IMG/VR virus record: IMGVR_UViG_2565956633_000006
Source of the DNA: a virus
Taxonomy: Duplodnaviria > Heunggongvirae > Uroviricota > Caudoviricetes
Length of the DNA: 13,400 bases
Strand: one strand, 5' to 3'
The notes beneath the pieces were generated by a model that was not told the DNA's origin, did no database searches, and saw only the letters and a program-made list of their open reading frames with translations. Both the position numbers and the translations under genes were made by a program. Positions 1-11,862 of this stretch are shown here, one piece after another; position 1 is the stretch's first letter, and the number at the start of each line of letters is the position of its first letter.

Positions 1-1284
1 TTACAGACTTCTGGAAGGTTGCGCAGCTCTTACAACACGCGGTTGATCTTCCGCGGCGTCTTCCAGCGCACTTAAATCACGGTCTTTCACTTCTGGCATT
101 TTCAGCGCAGAGATTAAACCAATCACTGAATATGCCATGATCATAATGGCGATCGGATACCAGGATTCCGTCATGGTGCAGAAAATACCCGCCAGGATAG
201 GACCAAAACCGGAAGCGATAAGACCACCAATTTCTTTAGAAATAGCCATCCGGGTAAAGCGGTTTTTACAGCCGAACATTTCTGCCATGGTAATATTTTC
301 CAGAGCAAATAATCCCAGCACCGCACAGTTATGAATCACAATCAGTGCAACCATAATGGTGCTCGGGGCATAGCTTTTATCTACGATGATAGAAAGCATT
401 GGCCATGCCAGCACAATCGCGGAGGTATTCATAATAATATACGGGATCCGGCGACCAATTTTATCGGATAACCAACCAAGGAACGGAATGGTCATAAAGC
501 CGAGAATCGAACTGATCATCAATGCATCTGTTGGAATTGCTTTGTTAAACAATAACGTCTGCACTAAATAGCCCGCAAGGAAAGTCTGAATTAAACCTGA
601 GTTACCCGCCTGACCAAAACGCAGCCCTGTTGCCAGCCAGAAGGATTTGCTCTGGAACATGCTACCAGCAGGTGCAGGTTTTGCTGTCGGTTGGTTGCTG
701 TCGTTAACCTTCTCAAAAACCGGGCTTTCTTTCAGATTCATACGCAACCAGATAGCAAAGACCATCACGACAACGCTCGCCAGGAACGGTATACGCCATC
801 CCCACGCCAGCAGTTCCTCTTTACTGAGAATGAAGAACATAAAGGCCCAGATTGCCGTTGCGCTTAAAGTTCCGCAGTTAGTTCCCATAGCCACAAATGA
901 GGAGATAATTCCGCGCTTACCTTTTGGCGCATATTCCGCCAGCATCGTACCGGCACCGGAAATTTCCGCACCTGCACCCAATCCCTGAATAATACGCAGC
1001 GTCACCAGCAAGATAGGGGCAAAAACACCAATCTGTGCATAGGTCGGTAACACACCAATTAAGGTGGTACAGATCCCCATCATGGTGATGGTAATAAAGA
1101 GCACTTTTTTACGCCCTATTCTGTCGCCCATTTTGCCGAAAATAAATGCTCCGACAATACGCGCCACATAACCTGCACCGTAGGTTCCCATTGCCAGAAT
1201 TAACGCCATTGCCGTTGATGATTCAGGAAAAAATATTTCATGAAACACTATCGCTGCGCCGAGCGAATATAACTGGAAATCCAT
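1..1284 (-). CDS. ydfJ: MFS (metabolite:H+ symporter family) transporter, N-terminally truncated at the prophage junction
   Basis: 427-aa ORF with many hydrophobic helices and GRK/R motifs typical of MFS. The product starts at MDFQLYSLG, aligning with the conserved (W)YDF..YG motif of MHS transporters, so about 25 N-terminal residues are missing. ATG at 1282-1284 has no convincing Shine-Dalgarno upstream. Stop at 1-3. Confidence 0.8.
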   Translation of the reverse strand: MDFQLYSLGAAIVFHEIFFPESSTAMALILAMGTYGAGYVARIVGAFIFGKMGDRIGRKKVLFITITMMGICTTLIGVLPTYAQIGVFAPILLVTLRIIQGLGAGAEISGAGTMLAEYAPKGKRGIISSFVAMGTNCGTLSATAIWAFMFFILSKEELLAWGWRIPFLASVVVMVFAIWLRMNLKESPVFEKVNDSNQPTAKPAPAGSMFQSKSFWLATGLRFGQAGNSGLIQTFLAGYLVQTLLFNKAIPTDALMISSILGFMTIPFLGWLSDKIGRRIPYIIMNTSAIVLAWPMLSIIVDKSYAPSTIMVALIVIHNCAVLGLFALENITMAEMFGCKNRFTRMAISKEIGGLIASGFGPILAGIFCTMTESWYPIAIMIMAYSVIGLISALKMPEVKDRDLSALEDAAEDQPRVVRAAQPSRSL

Positions 1285-1888: not shown

Positions 1889-2002
1889 ATGAACAGCATA
1901 CTGATAATCACATCTCTCCTTATCATATTCAGCATTTTTAGTCATGCCCTAATAAAATTAGGGATTGGCATATCCAATAACCCAGACAAAACCGATGTAT
2001 AA
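1889..2002 (+). CDS. Hypothetical 37-aa hydrophobic small protein ([37 protein letters not shown])
   Basis: ATG at 1889 preceded by GAGG at 1881-1884; single predicted transmembrane helix followed by a polar tail; stop TAA at 2000-2002. Below the ORF-track length cutoff; found by reading the DNA. Confidence 0.25.
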
Positions 2003-2070
2003 GTCAACATATCCTGAATCAGACATACAATATCGCAATGAAAATCAATAATATTTTAAGGAATATCTTC

Positions 2071-2304
2071 ATGAAATCAAAAGACACCCTAAAGTGGTTC
2101 CCTGCGCAGCTTCCTGAAGTAAGAATTATCCTAGGGGATGCTGTAGTGGAAGTAGCAAAACAGGGAAGACCTATCAATACCAGAACATTGCTTGATTACA
2201 TTGAAGGAAACATAAAGAAAAAATCATGGCTGGATAACAAAGAATTATTACAAACAGCGATATCAGTTCTTAAAGACAACCAAAATTTAAATGGTAAAAT
2301 GTAA
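2071..2304 (+). CDS. ydfK: Small prophage protein YdfK (YnaE paralog, cold-shock associated), 77 aa
   Basis: ORF 2038..2304; internal ATG at 2071 (MKSKDTLKWF...) has AAGGA 7 nt upstream, so 2071 is the likely start. Confidence 0.75.
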   Translation: MKSKDTLKWFPAQLPEVRIILGDAVVEVAKQGRPINTRTLLDYIEGNIKKKSWLDNKELLQTAISVLKDNQNLNGKM

Positions 2305-2620
2305 TATAATAAACTTACTTTTTTATCATTTTTCCACTTTAACAACATTTTGCTCCACTTTTCCACGACCAAACAACTTGAAATCTGGTTAAAATAACAC
2401 GCAACACTATTCTTCTTCCTTGAGTCCGCCCGGAACTCGAAAAACAAACCGAGTTAAAGCCATTTTTCACAAAATCGATTTTGGGTCTCACCAAAATTAC
2501 GGGGTTGCATACGCATTCGTTTATTTTCGAACGTGTACATACAAATATGCACAAAAATAATCAAAATTATTTTCTGAGATGCATTATGATATGAACACCA
2601 ATTTCGTATAGAGTCTCACT

Positions 2621-3211
2621 ATGTCTCGAATTTTTGCTTACTGTCGGATATCAACGCTGGATCAGACCACCGAAAATCAACGCCGGGAAATCGAAAGTGC
2701 AGGTTTTAAAATCAAACCTCAGCAAATAATCGAAGAACACATTAGCGGCTCAGCAGCAACCAGTGAGCGTCCTGGTTTTAACCGGTTGCTTGCTCGCCTG
2801 AAATGTGGTGATCAATTGATTGTGACAAAACTGGATCGCCTTGGTTGTAATGCAATGGATATCAGGAAAACAGTGGAACAACTGACCGAAACAGGTATCA
2901 GAGTGCATTGCTTAGCATTGGGGGGCATTGACCTGACCAGTCCAACAGGAAAAATGATGATGCAAGTAATTTCAGCAGTCGCTGAATTTGAACGAGACCT
3001 TTTACTTGAACGCACTCATTCCGGGATAGTAAGAGCCCGGGGCGCAGGGAAACGTTTTGGTCGACCACCTGTGTTAAATGAAGAACAGAAACAGGTGGTA
3101 TTCGAACGAATTAAGTCAGGTGTAAGTATAAGTGCCATTGCCCGGGAATTCAAAACCTCGCGGCAAACCATTTTAAGAGCCAAAGCAAAACTTCAGACAC
3201 CTGACATATAA
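2621..3211 (+). CDS. pinQ: Serine recombinase / DNA invertase (Gin/Hin/Pin family), 196 aa
   Basis: N-terminal [20 protein letters not shown] catalytic-serine motif and C-terminal helix-turn-helix ([23 protein letters not shown]), typical of Pin/Gin/Hin invertases. Confidence 0.95.
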
Positions 3212-3308
3212 AAAATAATCTCGGTGTGAGATGCTTTACGTCTTCCAAGCCACCTTCCTTGCCGTAAATGGAAAGATACATCTAATTATAGAATTTATAT
3301 GTTTTACC

Positions 3309-3884
3309 CTACGGCAGTGCTGGCCATTCAATATCCTGTGCAGTTGACGTATCAACACGGTTCAGCAATACCCGATACTTTTTCCATGCTTCCAGCAACG
3401 AGATTTCTTCCTCCGTTGCAATTTCCAGATCTGCAGCATCCTGAAGCGGCGCAATATGCTCACTGGCTACCTGCATCAGGCTGTTTTTTGTTTCTTCCGC
3501 CTCCCGGATCCGGAACAGTTTTTCTGCTTCCGTATCCTTCACCCAGGCTGTGCCGTTCCACTTCTGATATTCCCCTCCCGGCGATAACCAGGTAACATTT
3601 TCCGGTAACGGACCGAGTTCAGAAATAAATAACGCGTCGCCAGAAGCCACGTCATAAACCGTTTTACCCCGATGATCTTCAACGAGATGCCACGATGCCT
3701 CATCACTGTTGAAAACAGCCACGAAGCCTGCCGGAATATCTGGCGGTGCAATATCGATACTGTTTGCTGGCAGACCTGTATGAGGCGGAATATATGCGTC
3801 ACCTTCACCAATAAATTCATTAGTTCCGGCCAGCAGATTATAAATTTTTATGGTCCGTGGTTGTTCACTCATTCTGAATGCCAT
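3309..3884 (-). CDS. tfaQ: Tail fibre assembly protein (lambda Tfa-like), 191 aa
   Basis: Tfa-family product; start ATG overlaps the stf stop as TAATG at 3882-3886, indicating translational coupling. Confidence 0.9.
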
Positions 3885-4801
3885 TATGCAAGCCTCACAA
3901 TATAGTTAAATGCGATGTTTTTGACGGTGTTTTCCGCGTTACCAGCAGCGTTAACGGTGATGGTATGTCCATGTGAACCAATCGCAACGGAGTGCGTATG
4001 AGCACCAATACCGACAGTATGTGCGTGTGCACCTGCGCTTGCAGCAGTACCCGATACAGAGTGCGTATGAGCGCCTGCAGAAGAAGTGTTAACACTGTAT
4101 TTAGAATAATCAGGTGATCCACTTCCCGGAGCACCACTGGAACCACCTGAAACAAATGTCATCGAATGGGTATGTGCACCGGCTGAAGCAGCCGTACCGC
4201 TAACACTATGGGTATGCGCACCAGTGTTATTCGTGGATTTAGTGCCGTAATCAAACGACGATGTGGTTTTCGTCCCCAAATCCGTACTGGATACGCTGGC
4301 GCTGTGGGTGTGTGATTTAATGCCGTCCTGTTCCTGAGACAATACGGCTCGATCACTGGCGGGCTTGCCCTTAATCGTCCAGCCACGCATATCAGGGATC
4401 ACGCCTGACGGATAAGCGGCTGCAAGTTTCGGGTAAGCAGATTTGTCAAAAGTCTGCCCCTGCATCAGGGCATAACCAGACGGAACGGTATCTGATGGCC
4501 ACGGGATTGGTGCACCGACTGGATAAAACTCTGCAGGAGGATGAGCCGAGGTGTAAAGCTGCGCCCACGGCGACCAGTTTGCGTCGGTCGTATCCCGTCG
4601 TGAACGAATAAATGCCGGAGCATGAGCACCGCTTGTACCACTCCAGCCGATGAGTAACTCACCTTCGCCAACGGCTGTCATCCCTTTCAGGTGAATGATA
4701 TTTCCATACGCTGTTGGATATCCGTTGTTATACACCTCGTATAACTCAAGACCTGTTGCCCCCTGCGTATTGTCTGTCAGCGCGGTTACCCGCGTATCGT
4801 T
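3884..4801 (-). pseudogene. stfQ: Side tail fibre protein, C-terminal fragment (lambda Stf-like)
   Basis: Open frame from the stop at 4802-4804 down to the stop at 3884-3886, with no ATG near the 5' end (first start-like codon is GTG at 4733-4735, without an SD). Product carries repeated GAHTHS...[10 protein letters not shown] His-rich motifs and ends ...[11 protein letters not shown] as in lambda Stf. Confidence 0.85.
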
Positions 4802-4851
4802 TCATCGGCGCGGGCAATGGCAGCATCGAACAGGTTATCGGAATCAGCCAC
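4786..4851 (-). pseudogene. Remnant of lambda FII-like head-tail joining gene (first 21 codons only)
   Basis: GGGAGG followed by GTG GCT GAT TCC GAT AAC CTG TTC GAT GCT GCC ATT GCC CGC GCC GAT GAA ACG ATA CGC GGG TAA, i.e. [21 protein letters not shown], matching the lambda FII N-terminus ([21 protein letters not shown]) as I recall it. Start is GTG here, and the frame stops where the stf-derived sequence begins. Confidence 0.6.
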
Positions 4852-4862
4852 AGCGCCTCCCG

Positions 4863-5258
4863 TTATTGCATTCTGGCCAGGCCATGTTCTGTCATTTCGG
4901 CTGCCACACCGGCAGAGACACGAAACGCCGTTCCCGGCAGCACAAATGCCACAGGCTCATCCCGCGTGGCGTGAAGTGCATCAGTATGCAGCGTCACCAG
5001 TGCCACGACCGTGACCAGAGCAGCCGTATCAATCACGGTATCCGGCTGCGCTGATACCACCTCATTTTCATGTCCGGTCAGCGCATTTTCCGGGCTGACA
5101 GATGTGTCCTGACCGGCAGCGTCATCCGTGTCATCAAGCTCCTCTTCCAGCTCTGCCACACGGAGCACCAGTTCTTCTTTCGTCCCCGTCAGGCTGACAT
5201 CACGGTTCAGTTGCTCACCCAGCACCTGAAGACGGGCAATCAGTTCATCTTTCGTCAT
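4863..5258 (-). CDS. Lambda FI-like DNA packaging protein, 131 aa
   Basis: Product from the internal ATG at 5256-5258 (MTKDELIARLQVLGEQLNRDVSLTGTKEEL...) matches lambda gpFI; strong SD (GGAGGAG) upstream. The longer ORF-track start at 5297 lacks an SD. Confidence 0.85.
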   Translation of the reverse strand: MTKDELIARLQVLGEQLNRDVSLTGTKEELVLRVAELEEELDDTDDAAGQDTSVSPENALTGHENEVVSAQPDTVIDTAALVTVVALVTLHTDALHATRDEPVAFVLPGTAFRVSAGVAAEMTEHGLARMQ

Positions 5259-5279
5259 GGACTCCTCCACAGAGAGAAA

Positions 5280-5297
5280 ATGGCCCCGAAGGGCCAT
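5280..5297 (-). terminator. GC-rich hairpin between the E remnant and FI (ATGGCCC-TTCG-GGGCCAT on the minus strand, then TTTCTCTCT)
   Basis: Perfect 7-bp stem with a 4-nt loop, followed by a U-rich tract on the coding (minus) strand; could act as attenuator or mRNA stabiliser. Confidence 0.35.
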
Positions 5298-5299
5298 GA

Positions 5300-5866
5300 T
5301 TACGCCAGTTGTACGGACACGAACGCATCAGGATCAGCCAGCAGCATCAGCGGTGCTGACTGAATCATGGTGAACTCACGCGCCGGATCGCCGGTGGTCA
5401 CCCAGTTTTTCGGGTAGCGGGCAGAGGCGTTAATACCTTCGCGCTGTGCGTCCGCATCCTGAATGCAGCCATAGGTGCGCAGACCGCGTGCCTGAGTGTT
5501 CCCCAGCACCATCGTGTTGTCCGGCAGGAAGTTCTTTTTGACGTCGTTTTCCACGTACTGTCCGGAATACACGACGATCGCCGTATCGCCATACATCCCC
5601 TTATAGGACACCGCTTCGCCCAGGTCTTTTACCGCTGTCTCCAGCTCGGAATTAGAGCCGCGACGGGTATCCAGCTTCTCCTTGACGGCTTTGAAGGAAC
5701 GGAACAGCGCCCAGCCTTTCGGATCAAACACGATGATATTCACCACGCCGCTGGCGTTCAGCGCGTAGGCTTCGATATCGTCGGTCGGGTCATACGTGGA
5801 CTTGTCACGCTTGCTCCACTCCGTGCCGCCGGACTGCGTGATGTTGTTCGCCGCACTGCGGCCCAT
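5300..5866 (-). pseudogene. Major capsid protein (lambda gpE-like), C-terminal remnant of about 188 codons
   Basis: Product ends ...NTMVLGNTQARGLRTYGCIQDADAQREGINASARYPKNWVTTGDPAREFTMIQSAPLMLLADPDAFVSVQLA, matching the C-terminus of lambda E; the 5' half is absent and replaced by the Nu1-like gene. Confidence 0.85.
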
Positions 5867-6372
5867 ATCAGTTCATCCAGCGCGGCTGCTTTGTTCATGG
5901 CTTTGATGATATCCCGTTTCAGGAAATCAACATGTCGGTTTTCCAGTTCCGGAAAACGCCGCTGCACCGACAGGGGGATCCCGTCGAGAATACTGGCAAT
6001 TTCACCTGCGATCCGCGACAGCACGAAAGTACAGAATGCGGTTTCCACCACTTCAGCGGAGTCTCTGGCATTTTTCAGCTCCTGTGCGTCGGCCTGCGCA
6101 CGCGTAAGTCGATGGCGTTCGTACTCAATAGTCCCTGGCTGGAGATCTGTCTCGCTGGCCTGCCGCAGTTCTTCAACTTCCCGGCGCAGCTTTTCGTTCT
6201 CAATTTCAGCATCCCTTTCGGCATACCATCTTATAACGGCGGCAGAGTCATAAAGCACCTCATTACCCTTGCCACCGCCTCGCAGAACGGGCATTCCCTG
6301 TTCCTGCCAGTTCTGAATGGTACGGATACTCGCACCGAAAATGTCAGCCAGCTGCTTTTTGTTGACTTCCAT
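5758..6372 (-). CDS. nohA: Terminase small subunit Nu1 homolog with altered C-terminus (fusion to out-of-frame capsid-gene sequence)
   Basis: First ~168 aa (MEVNKKQLADIFGASIRTIQNWQEQGMPVLRGGGKGNEVLYDSAAV...) match lambda Nu1 nearly residue for residue; the tail (..WAAVRRTTSRSPAARSGASVTSPRMTRPTISKPTR) is read from E-derived DNA in another frame. Confidence 0.85.
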   Translation of the reverse strand: MEVNKKQLADIFGASIRTIQNWQEQGMPVLRGGGKGNEVLYDSAAVIRWYAERDAEIENEKLRREVEELRQASETDLQPGTIEYERHRLTRAQADAQELKNARDSAEVVETAFCTFVLSRIAGEIASILDGIPLSVQRRFPELENRHVDFLKRDIIKAMNKAAALDELIWAAVRRTTSRSPAARSGASVTSPRMTRPTISKPTR

Positions 6373-8253: not shown

Positions 8254-8460
8254 CTTCATTTTCACTTTTTTAAATCCAACGACAGACGGCTGGCATTTAA
8301 GTATTGTGAAATATTATCAAATGTAATCATCATTGATTTACAAAAGATACATTTTGCCCCGAAAGGATTCATGTCAGAAACATCAAAAGATGATGTTCTA
8401 TACTGGGAACCATGACAACACGGGCATCTAAAGTGAATATGGTTTGTAATATTGTCTACC

Positions 8461-8673
8461 TCAAAGCGCCACTACATGAACAGCGGCAGGACCTTTAGGT
8501 CCGTTCTCAATACCAAATTCAACTTCCTGATTCTCAGTTAATGTTTTGAAATCGTTGCTCTGAATTGCTGAGAAATGGACAAACACATCTTTGCTGCCAT
8601 CTTTCGGCGTGATGAAACCAAAACCTTTTTCAGGGTTAAACCATTTCACTAAACCAGTCATTTTGTTAGACAT
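8461..8673 (-). CDS. cspI: Cold-shock protein CspI (CspA family), 70 aa
   Basis: [38 protein letters not shown]... with RNP1 (KGFGFI) and RNP2 (VFVHF) motifs; long leader region upstream. Confidence 0.95.
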
Positions 8674-9037
8674 AATTATTACCTTTTGAAGAAATTAGCC
8701 CTTGGGCAGAATGGTCCGAAAAAAAAATATCAGAGAGAAAAACCAACAAGGAAATCTCAAGAGGTACAAATAATAAAATTATAACAATGACTGCTTCAGA
8801 TAAATTTGTAACAAACCAGAACACCATTAACGCATGATTAACCACCCATAGCAAGGATTACTTTTGTAAAGAAAAACACAGCAATGAAAGAATAGCTTTA
8901 TTTATTAATAATAACGTGTCATTCTGATTAAGACCTTTTATCTTACCCTTAAGATTTCAGGAATTTTGGCTCATGGAAGAGTCCTTTTTATTTAAATTTT
9001 ACATTCCGCGATGTAAATGTTCCGATTTAATATTACC

Positions 9038-11065: not shown

Positions 11066-11346
11066 GAGATTGTGGTGCTTTTTGTGGGAGTCATCCACTT
11101 ACGCACTTTGTTTTGCCATGCCAGCAGTTAGCTTCTGCTGTAAAACTATTCATGCAGCAAACCTGCACTTCACCACAATGGTTAGCATACTTTTCCTGAT
11201 TAAGATTTTGCCAAATATGCTAGCCATTGTTTCATGTATTGGACCTCCTTACTTTTTATTAAAGAGATCCAATATTCACTACTCTGTCCGTATCTCTACT
11301 CAGGCATCAGCCTTCTTCGTTATCGTATACAGACGAGCGATGAATT

Positions 11347-11562
11347 TTAATCAGTAATGATGACATTTGCTGCTGCAGGACCTTTAGCACCACTCTCTAT
11401 AGAGAAGGTAACCTTTTGACCTTCAAATAAGGTTCGATAATTATCATTCTGAATCGCAGAAAAATGCACAAACACATCTTTACTACCATCAACAGGAGAA
11501 ATAAAGCCGAAACCTTTATCAGCGTTAAACCATTTTACTAAACCAGTCATTTTATTTGACAT
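11347..11562 (-). CDS. cspB: Cold-shock protein CspB (CspA family), 71 aa
   Basis: [38 protein letters not shown]...; AAGGA SD 7 nt upstream of the ATG at 11560-11562. Confidence 0.95.
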
Positions 11563-11862
11563 TCTACATTCCTTAACTTGAGCCTTTCGGCATAAATGGT
11601 TTGCATAACAGAAACGACTTCGTACTTAATTGGAGAGACTCAAAGAAGGAATAAGTGAATAACACCTGAAATGAGAACTGCTTTAGTAAACTACTTCGTA
11701 TATCGTCTGTTCTTCAAACCGACGCAATCATTAACGCATAGTTGAACATATGAAGCAATGTTTATTTTAGACATCCAGCCATCTTCAACCCCATCAAAAA
11801 ACTATAGCTTTCTTCAGGAACGTGTGTATAGTGCGCCAAGTTATCAGTATTAAGGAATTTTT
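11563..11862. promoter_or_regulatory. Divergent cspB/cspF control region (promoters and long 5' leaders)
   Basis: 300-bp AT-rich spacer between divergently oriented csp genes; contains a repeated ACTTCGTA motif (11615-11626 and 11691-11705) in the expected cspB leader. CspA-family genes are known to carry long regulatory 5' UTRs. Confidence 0.5.

Follow-up and report, generated by a model that had tools for sequence, protein, structure and literature searches.

Why does a decayed prophage hold an apparently complete distal end of a tail-fiber gene, directly followed by the gene for its assembly chaperone, after most of its other tail genes have gone? The question is raised by IMG/VR virus record IMGVR_UViG_2565956633_000006 (Caudoviricetes), a stretch of 13,400 nucleotides referred to here as the window. 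On its minus strand a remnant of the side tail-fiber gene stf, here stfQ', precedes the tail-fiber assembly gene tfaQ. An earlier note, made from the letters of the window alone, had proposed that the pair was kept as a recombination reservoir for host-range switching. Very probably, the feature is the known 3' remnant of stfQ in the Qin prophage, untranslated and followed by an intact tfaQ, and no adaptive cause is needed for its retention. The remnant itself is ordinary; the one result worth following is the repeated use of its 5' endpoint.

The distal end of a side tail fiber in Qin

Over its whole length the window aligned at 98-100% to Escherichia coli chromosomes where they carry the cryptic prophage Qin, and it shares the synteny of that region (ydfJ', ydfK, pinQ, tfaQ, stf', nohA, ynfO and onward to ydfT). 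With gene names taken from the RefSeq annotation of strain 1303 and of a K-12-like strain, the order in the window is ydfJ', ynfT, ydfK, pinQ, tfaQ, stf remnant, head-gene remnants, nohA and ynfO, continuing with ydfO, gnsB, cspI, rzpQ, rrrQ, ydfR, essD, cspB, cspF and ydfT. The pair had been identified correctly, as the receptor-binding distal end of a side tail fiber of lambdoid type with its Tfa chaperone in a decayed prophage; the prophage is Qin. The Qin stfQ'/tfaQ pair, its gp37-like needle with HxH (histidine-x-histidine) motifs, and the exchange of fiber genes between lambda and Qin are already documented.

The remnant stfQ' (3884-4786, minus strand; tblastn) consists of 300 stf codons and the stop codon TAA at 3886-3884. 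Its translation is 92% identical in amino acids to Stf of phages PhiR29_1/2 across 99% of the frame, in frame with codons 666-966 of the PhiR29_1 protein. The part homologous to Stf starts near codon 666 of the PhiR29_1 protein, or 710 of that of PhiR26_1; upstream of it the window carries DNA of the head-tail joining gene FII. In comparison with the full-length pairs of PhiR29_1, PhiR26_1 and the Qin prophage of strain 1303, the distal 300 codons and tfa are collinear at 83-92% amino acid identity and the TAATG-type overlap of stf and tfa is present there too, whereas the N-terminal domain, the Ala/Ser-rich shaft and the pre-anchor domains (~665-710 codons) are missing from the window. What characterizes a functional Stf, namely an N-terminal tail-attachment domain, a shaft and a start codon of its own, is not found in the remnant, and RefSeq labels its equivalents in K-12 and related strains "phage tail protein, missing N-terminus".

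The chaperone gene tfaQ (3309-3884, minus strand) is intact, lies directly after the fiber gene and is annotated under this name in related genomes. Its 191-amino-acid product matches Caudo_TAP (Pfam PF02413, E=9.8e-43, amino acids 72-191), and its C-terminal third resembles the Mu Tfa protein, gpU (PDB 5YVQ chain B, E=1.4e-8).

The truncation can be read from the native sequences. Native FII runs ...GATACGCGGGTA|CATGGG and native stf ...AAGGTCGGGTA|ACCGCG. Because both have CGGGTA at the break, the deletion used a 6-nt microhomology, and in the window FII codon 21 is joined to approximately codon 710 of stf through this CGGGTA (4787-4792, minus strand). Lost in between were Z, U, V, G, T, H, M, L, K, I, J, lom, together with some 2.1 kb of stf, so that every tail gene between FII and the distal third of stf is gone, in agreement with the earlier description of nearly all other tail genes as deleted. 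A microhomology-mediated deletion took out FII codon 22 through approximately stf codon 709 and left the distal 300 codons. The frame is indeed open from 4801, but not all of it is stf: only positions up to 4786 are certainly stf, 4787-4792 are the junction microhomology, and 4793-4801 are FII DNA out of frame. The 21-codon stub FII' (4786-4851, minus strand), whose counterpart in strain 1303 is annotated as head-tail joining protein, has a GTG start at 4851 and a GGGAGG ribosome-binding site; its stop codon TAA (4788-4786) was created by the junction, and its frame differs from that of stf'. A second deletion junction, nohA'|E' (5866-5869, minus strand), has the microhomology GATA, native nohA being CTGATA|CCGGGG and native E GGTGGATA|TGGGCC.

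Comparisons were made with 5426 complete E. coli genomes and with about 80 loci, of which 61 metagenome and two species-representative genome loci share an exact 25-mer just inside the remnant and about 17 were drawn from BLAST hits. The exact arrangement of the window occurs in none of the 5426 genomes, and the same holds for the FII'|stf' junction. Closest to it is strain 81, in which the sequences flanking a 1078-bp block found in the window only are 100% identical to those of the window. K-12 Qin has the identical chromosomal locus, gene order and stf-side breakpoint, with 96-99% DNA identity outside the tip of the fiber. In K-12, however, stf' is joined directly to nohA, whereas the window retains the 1078-bp E'-FI-FII' block (4788-5865); the nohA breakpoint is not the one of the window, and the tip cassette measures 47 amino acids as against 30.

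An open frame without signals for expression

From 4801 to 3887, the 305 codons of the minus-strand frame are interrupted by neither a stop codon nor a frameshift, and this holds for 3884-4735 too, where the earlier note had taken an interruption to tell against it. The earliest in-frame start codons are a GTG at 4735, with GAG directly adjacent, and an ATG at 4681, right next to AAAGGG; a Shine-Dalgarno sequence at the proper distance is lacking from both, and a promoter scan of the minus strand between 3200 and 6600 gave no promoter-like site. The check on start signals that had been suggested thus yielded neither a promoter-like site nor a start codon with a ribosome-binding site. Judged by these signals, the remnant is almost certainly not expressed and would be dead as a protein-coding gene. 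As regards the coupling to tfaQ that had been proposed, the overlap is real, with the last A of the stop codon TAA (3886-3884) shared with the tfaQ ATG (3884-3882) to form TAATG. Dependence of tfaQ on stf' does not follow from it: the overlap is a single nucleotide, and tfaQ has its own GAGG 8 nt upstream of the ATG and can therefore be translated independently of stf'.

A frame that is open although probably untranslated might seem to call for selection. In the window, however, the remnant differs from the full-length Qin allele L049 at 0 of 900 nt, and this identity means that the open frame needs no selection. Other truncated copies lie 0-9 nt from the nearest full-length copy. Approximately 50 loci have native stf upstream; these are mostly full-length genes, many of them in the Qin context with pinQ, ydfK and ydfJ downstream. 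Strain ATCC 8739 is a further carrier of a full-length Qin stf. The frame may still be open either because the truncation is recent or because homologous fiber genes keep overwriting the remnant through gene conversion, which is also the inferred route of cassette replacement. Among the junction types checked, three of eight are in frame (NohA, portal and tape measure), which equals the chance expectation. These fusions join stf to NohA in L003, from strain 81 (170+300 amino acids), and to the portal or tape-measure protein in L013 and L026.

Three observations weigh against a dead, unselected remnant. Where it is fused in frame to NohA, the portal or the tape-measure protein, it could be translated in those strains. 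The complete frame is kept in 21 of the 22 truncated copies readable throughout, which purifying selection could explain too. Finally, the ratio of nonsynonymous to synonymous substitution rates among truncated copies is low (0.09-0.27), a value that very few substitutions underlie.

In other strains the gene is either complete or much shorter than here, with endpoints at +395 or +780 or with only about 165 nt left. In E. coli ECGI0523 (L008, ~93% identical), the K-12 type nohA|stf junction accompanies a remnant with a premature stop codon (203 amino acids); the presence of this junction in so divergent a lineage indicates that the junction is old. Strain W137 (L071) has a near-identical FII'-stf'-tfa remnant whose stf side is 63 nt shorter and which lies beside an Avs2 defense gene instead of pinQ, hence in a different part of the genome context.

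Needle architecture and the histidine-rich units

The retained part begins with a pre-collar module (amino acids 6-91; 4529-4786, minus strand) homologous to the PhiR26/R29 and K-12 alleles. In strain 1303 Stf it is swapped for an unrelated module, with a mosaic boundary at window position 4557, where the collar starts. The collar domain itself (4364-4528, minus strand) matches Pfam PF07484 Collar (E=1.6e-12, amino acids 96-143) and aligned to the start of the T4 gp37 tip structure 2XGF; the Pfam scan also matches a Phage_fiber repeat in stfQ'. Overall, amino acids 92-305 align with residues 28-242 of 2xgf_A (E=2.3e-87, phmmer against PDB), and the retained part spans all of the crystallized T4 gp37 fragment, presumably residues 785-1026.

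Seven HxH motifs stand at amino acids 164, 196, 210, 245, 259, 268 and 277 (window 4312-4304, 4216-4208, 4174-4166, 4069-4061, 4027-4019, 4000-3992 and 3973-3965, respectively). All seven are in register with those of T4 gp37, three before the tip and four after it, and H929/H931 of T4 correspond to H210/H212 of the window in the alignment. In the T4 needle there are seven irons, each bound by an HxH motif from three chains, with H929/H931 being essential (PMC6957217). Residue-by-residue alignment to 2XGF delimits an ascending needle half with motifs 1-3 (4166-4312, minus strand), and alignment to 2XGF and relatives a descending half with motifs 4-7 and a conserved C-terminus (3887-4075, minus strand). 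Between them lies a variable tip, or head-domain, cassette of 30 amino acids (213-242; 4076-4165, minus strand), which is unalignable to K-12 and the most divergent part relative to T4. By homology to 2XGF, a complete fiber with this part would have a homotrimeric collar, needle and tip as in T4 gp37, and probably the same trimer fold and iron binding. The chain would run up the needle, form the receptor-binding tip and return down it, with each HxH of three chains binding one iron ion and Tfa assisting folding.

The likeness to T4 gp37 thus extends from the collar-needle-head architecture and the registered motifs to a near-identical stretch of 40 C-terminal residues. In contrast to T4, the gene in the window is a fragment of a lambdoid stf, its chaperone is of the Tfa type and not gp38, and the fragment is not expressed within a fiber. 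Furthermore, the receptor-contacting tip residues of T4 gp37, I933-Y949 (PMC6957217), are exchanged for an unrelated shorter loop; as amino acids 213-242 replace them, the specificity differs from that of T4.

This architecture bears on the tandem histidine-rich repeats described in the earlier note, which are present at the protein level and not as tandem repeats in DNA. A 17-amino-acid unit occurs twice (amino acids 194-210 and 243-259), and since the needle is a hairpin in sequence terms, similar His-rich units flank the central divergent stretch. The two units flank the tip at a distance of 147 nt from each other, and their DNA identity is 39/60 (65%). Tandem Repeats Finder returned no tandem repeat in DNA, even at score 30 (0 rows), and a DNA repeat search gave nothing beyond families of 15-20 nt at the HxH codons, whose members are 75-93% alike. 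The spacings of the motifs are irregular (27, 42, 69, 105 and 147 nt), unlike those of a tandem array. On these grounds a repeat array was rejected; as far as the alignment tells, the His-rich units are structural metal-binding motifs.

Exchange of the tip

Homologous fiber ends do exist in related phages, as the earlier note presupposed: those of active lambdoid phages are 83-92% identical to the remnant, and those of T4-like phages about 70%. The search for mosaic junctions that it recommended placed breaks at the tip (4076-4172, against K-12) and at 4557 (against strain 1303). Relative to K-12, 4076-4172 is the sole unalignable stretch, opposite 148 nt in K-12, and it lies between HxH 3 and HxH 4. 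In 70 related loci this position is taken by six or more unrelated tip cassettes, 30-48 amino acids long, while the flanking needle is conserved. The tip-cassette boundaries in the window fit a proposal, reportedly made by Tetart, Desplats and Krisch in 1998, that conserved motifs coding for His-boxes are the crossover points of T-even adhesin swaps.

Cassettes also appear to have moved after the remnant had formed. Three tips are combined with the K-12 type junction and two with that of strain 81, and the occurrence of one junction with different tips implies that the distal part was replaced after truncation. This pattern supports exchange, repeated origin of one junction being less likely. 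In experiments, De Paepe et al. (2014; PMC3945230) obtained lambda x Qin stf-tfa recombinants at a frequency of about 2e-6 per phage, most of them dependent on Red-beta. For the fiber genes of lambdoid and T4-like phages, the remnant would be a passive partner in homologous exchange, the swapped unit probably being the tip cassette bounded by conserved HxH-coding stretches. Such cassette turnover in truncated prophage copies bears on the host-range determinants that circulate between dead prophages and live phages.

Selection, internal translation and inversion as alternatives

That the remnant is a recombination substrate is demonstrated; there is no indication of its being kept for that. Spelled out, the reservoir idea holds that the remnant and tfaQ are under selection as a store of receptor-binding tips, from which strains or resident phages gain as lambdoid phages acquire tips. 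It draws on the recombination with lambda, the homologous ends in active phages and the exchange of cassettes after truncation, and also on a 45-mer from the stf side, carried by 2828 of the 5426 complete genomes. Yet the host gains no obvious benefit from aiding a change in phage host range, identity to full-length alleles makes selection unnecessary, the deletions of other strains reach 42-780 nt or more into the remnant, and in-frame fusions are not in excess. Selection for this use is unlikely. From the earlier proposal, then, exchange stands, on the published recombinants and the cassette swaps, while retention for that use does not, in view of the 0/900 nt and the chance level of in-frame fusions.

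Translation from within the remnant has even less to commend it. A truncated Stf made from GTG 4735 or ATG 4681 would fold with TfaQ into a free trimeric needle of use to the host. The stf' frame is intact, tfaQ is intact with its own ribosome-binding site, and the retained part covers the whole of the crystallized T4 fragment; but both starts want a Shine-Dalgarno sequence, the minus strand between 3200 and 6600 wants a promoter-like site, in most strains the junction joins stf' to a partner in another frame, and the literature searched describes no product of the remnant. Such a product is very unlikely, and a host role for it, for example the masking of a receptor against superinfection, is equally so. 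The proximity of pinQ, an annotated serine invertase gene (2621-3211, plus strand; Pfam Resolvase, E=2.5e-36, and HTH_7) ending 97 bp from tfaQ, suggests another function, in which stf'-tfaQ would be one arm of a Pin-driven invertible host-range switch. Like the Mu G/Gin, P1 C/Cin and e14 P/Pin systems, the window has a Pin-family invertase beside a tail-fiber C-terminus and tfa, and upstream of pinQ, near 2446, there is a half-site resembling gix (AAACCGAG). Unlike those systems, it has neither an alternative tfa'/stf' cassette nor paired crossover sites, and the gene orientation is incompatible, pinQ being convergent with tfaQ. No 26-bp crossover site (..AAACC NN GGTTT..) occurs in 2000-5400 with up to three mismatches allowed, there is no inverted pair of gix/hix-like sites and no inverted repeats flank the segment, and the flipped segment appears in none of the approximately 80 loci. 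An inversion switch is exceedingly improbable and already largely refuted. The half-site, CAAACC GA GTTAAAG with AAACCGAG as in Mu gix (~2440-2466, plus strand), suggests that the original invertible segment of pinQ was on the ydfK side and not on the tfaQ side.

Reuse of the stf breakpoint

The presumably untranslated Qin remnant begins at an endpoint that recurs, many strains having apparently arrived at it independently. The stf-side breakpoint, ^ACCGCGCTG, is one nucleotide common to at least 11 upstream partners: nohA three times, gpA, portal B, FII, Z, U, tape-measure H, J and the end of lom. On the coding strand it reads ...TA^ACCGCGCTGACAG at window position 4786, the stf-side sequence with the junctions lying upstream being ACCGCGCTGACAGACA. 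It is shared by the window (4786-4792) and by L002-L004, L013, L026, L033, L059, L064, L077 and L078. Immediately before ^ACCGCG, the FII partner in the window has CGCGGGTA. The nohA partners have GAATATA in K-12 and CTGATA in strain 81, and L064 has a K-12-like variant with a small internal deletion. The gpA partner in S3 has GTCGGTTA, a 7/8 match to native GTCGGGTA. The portal B partner in L013 has GCGCATA; the Z partner in L033 has CCATTA, where native Z has TAACCGCG, an 8-mer that Z and stf have in common at the break. The remaining partners are U in NCCP12480 (CAGGTG), tape-measure H in L026 (CAGTGTA), J in AHB21 (GCCAGTA) and the lom stop codon in L059 (TGATTA). In every partner junction but that of U, TA directly precedes the breakpoint. 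Other stf endpoints (-35, +42, +63, +395 and +780) were each seen once. Among the truncated variants found by BLAST, independently of the 25-mer, 5 of 12 end at the stf breakpoint nucleotide.

Other half-junctions are reused as well. After nohA ...CTGATA^, the window continues with E, AHB21 (L004) with a J fragment of 603 bp, and strain 81 (L003) directly with stf. Between the nohA and stf breakpoints there is accordingly nothing, the 1078-bp E'-FI-FII' block or the 603-bp J block, each block bounded by TA on both sides, so that strain 81 corresponds to the window minus 4788-5865 and to AHB21 minus its J block. The Z end ...CCATTA^ has five right-hand partners, namely the lom-stf spacer (strain 1303), the stf breakpoint itself, and stf +42, +395 and +780, while ^ACCGCGTTG of Z is joined to gpA in NCCP12480. 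The E end ^TGGGCC has two left-hand partners, one of them gpA in PCP06173, and FII ...GGGTA^ has two right-hand partners, including stf +63 in W137. The loci concerned are L001, L033, L072, L073, L075 and L078 for Z, L073 for E and L071 for FII. Most of the approximately 20 distinct junctions cross TA, as do six of the seven that involve neither the stf breakpoint nor Z. U|stf (CAGGTG), FI|stf (GAAG) and gpA|Z clearly depart from this pattern.

A directed cut-and-join activity would be expected to leave such a trace, half-sites used repeatedly with a fixed 2-bp crossover. It is conceivable, though on balance doubtful, that prophage decay is sculpted by such an activity and that the 5' edge of the remnant is not a random point of decay. 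Candidate activities may include an insertion sequence (IS) transposase with IEE-type excision and adjacent deletion, IS30-like events with 2-bp targets, a serine recombinase or TA-specific transposase acting on pseudo-sites, or a guided nuclease. IEE-dependent excision generates IS-free deletions of up to 40 kb that start at a former IS site and have microhomology joints, and more than 30% of E. coli assemblies are reported to carry IEE (PMC9943667). The target duplications of IS30 are 2 bp long, and the element can remove itself when deletions form (PMC9333248). At these loci, direct evidence of the IEE or IS30 route was not seen. If a specific enzyme is behind these markedly non-random endpoints, models of prophage decay change, and the endpoints become a sequence-level marker of that activity in E. 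coli genomes.

Several explanations of the breakpoint were tried and rejected. Pin is an improbable agent, as the breakpoint has no gix/hix-like site and its region has no counterpart near pinQ; deletions anchored there occur also where no pinQ follows (L015, L033 and L059). A terminal inverted repeat of a mobile unit has no second copy in the window. No resident IS stands at the breakpoint in the approximately 80 loci, the IS3-family element of strain 19KM2326N being elsewhere, and the IS30 lambda hot spot (LHS) is at lambda 33244-33498, outside stf. Native stf at the break has an AAG protospacer-adjacent motif (PAM), with the break after protospacer position 8 and the deletions towards the PAM side; self-targeting by a type I-E CRISPR system was rejected, as the spacer is absent from the arrays of the 5426 complete genomes. 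DNA secondary structure gave z-scores of -0.25 and -0.81, the same as shuffled sequences, and ligation at GGTNACC restriction sites fits only the U junction. The motif TA[AC]CCGCG fits the stf, Z and FII ends and is not a sufficient signal, since further copies in J and elsewhere are not junctions. Lastly, the low diversity from -150 to +300, considered as a boundary marker, comes largely from the selection of loci by an exact 25-mer.

Other features of the window

Upstream of FII', on the minus strand, an apparently intact gene for DNA-packaging protein FI (4863-5261) is collinear with the annotated FI of strain 1303, and the 3' remnant of the major capsid gene, E' (5303-5865), exceeds that of strain 1303 by 88 nt. 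Beyond the second junction, annotation and alignment identify nohA' (5870-6372, minus strand), which encodes a Nu1-type small terminase subunit and has lost its 3' end. At the other side of the window, ydfJ' (1-1284, minus strand) is assigned from the annotation of strain 1303 and the K-12-like strain. Among RNA families, Rfam IS009 (RF02111) matches at full length with 221 bits at 3343-3541 on the minus strand, wholly within the tfaQ coding sequence. Two thermoregulator leaders of the cspA type (RF01766) lie upstream of cspI and cspB, at 8434-8820 and 11331-11723, respectively, both on the minus strand.

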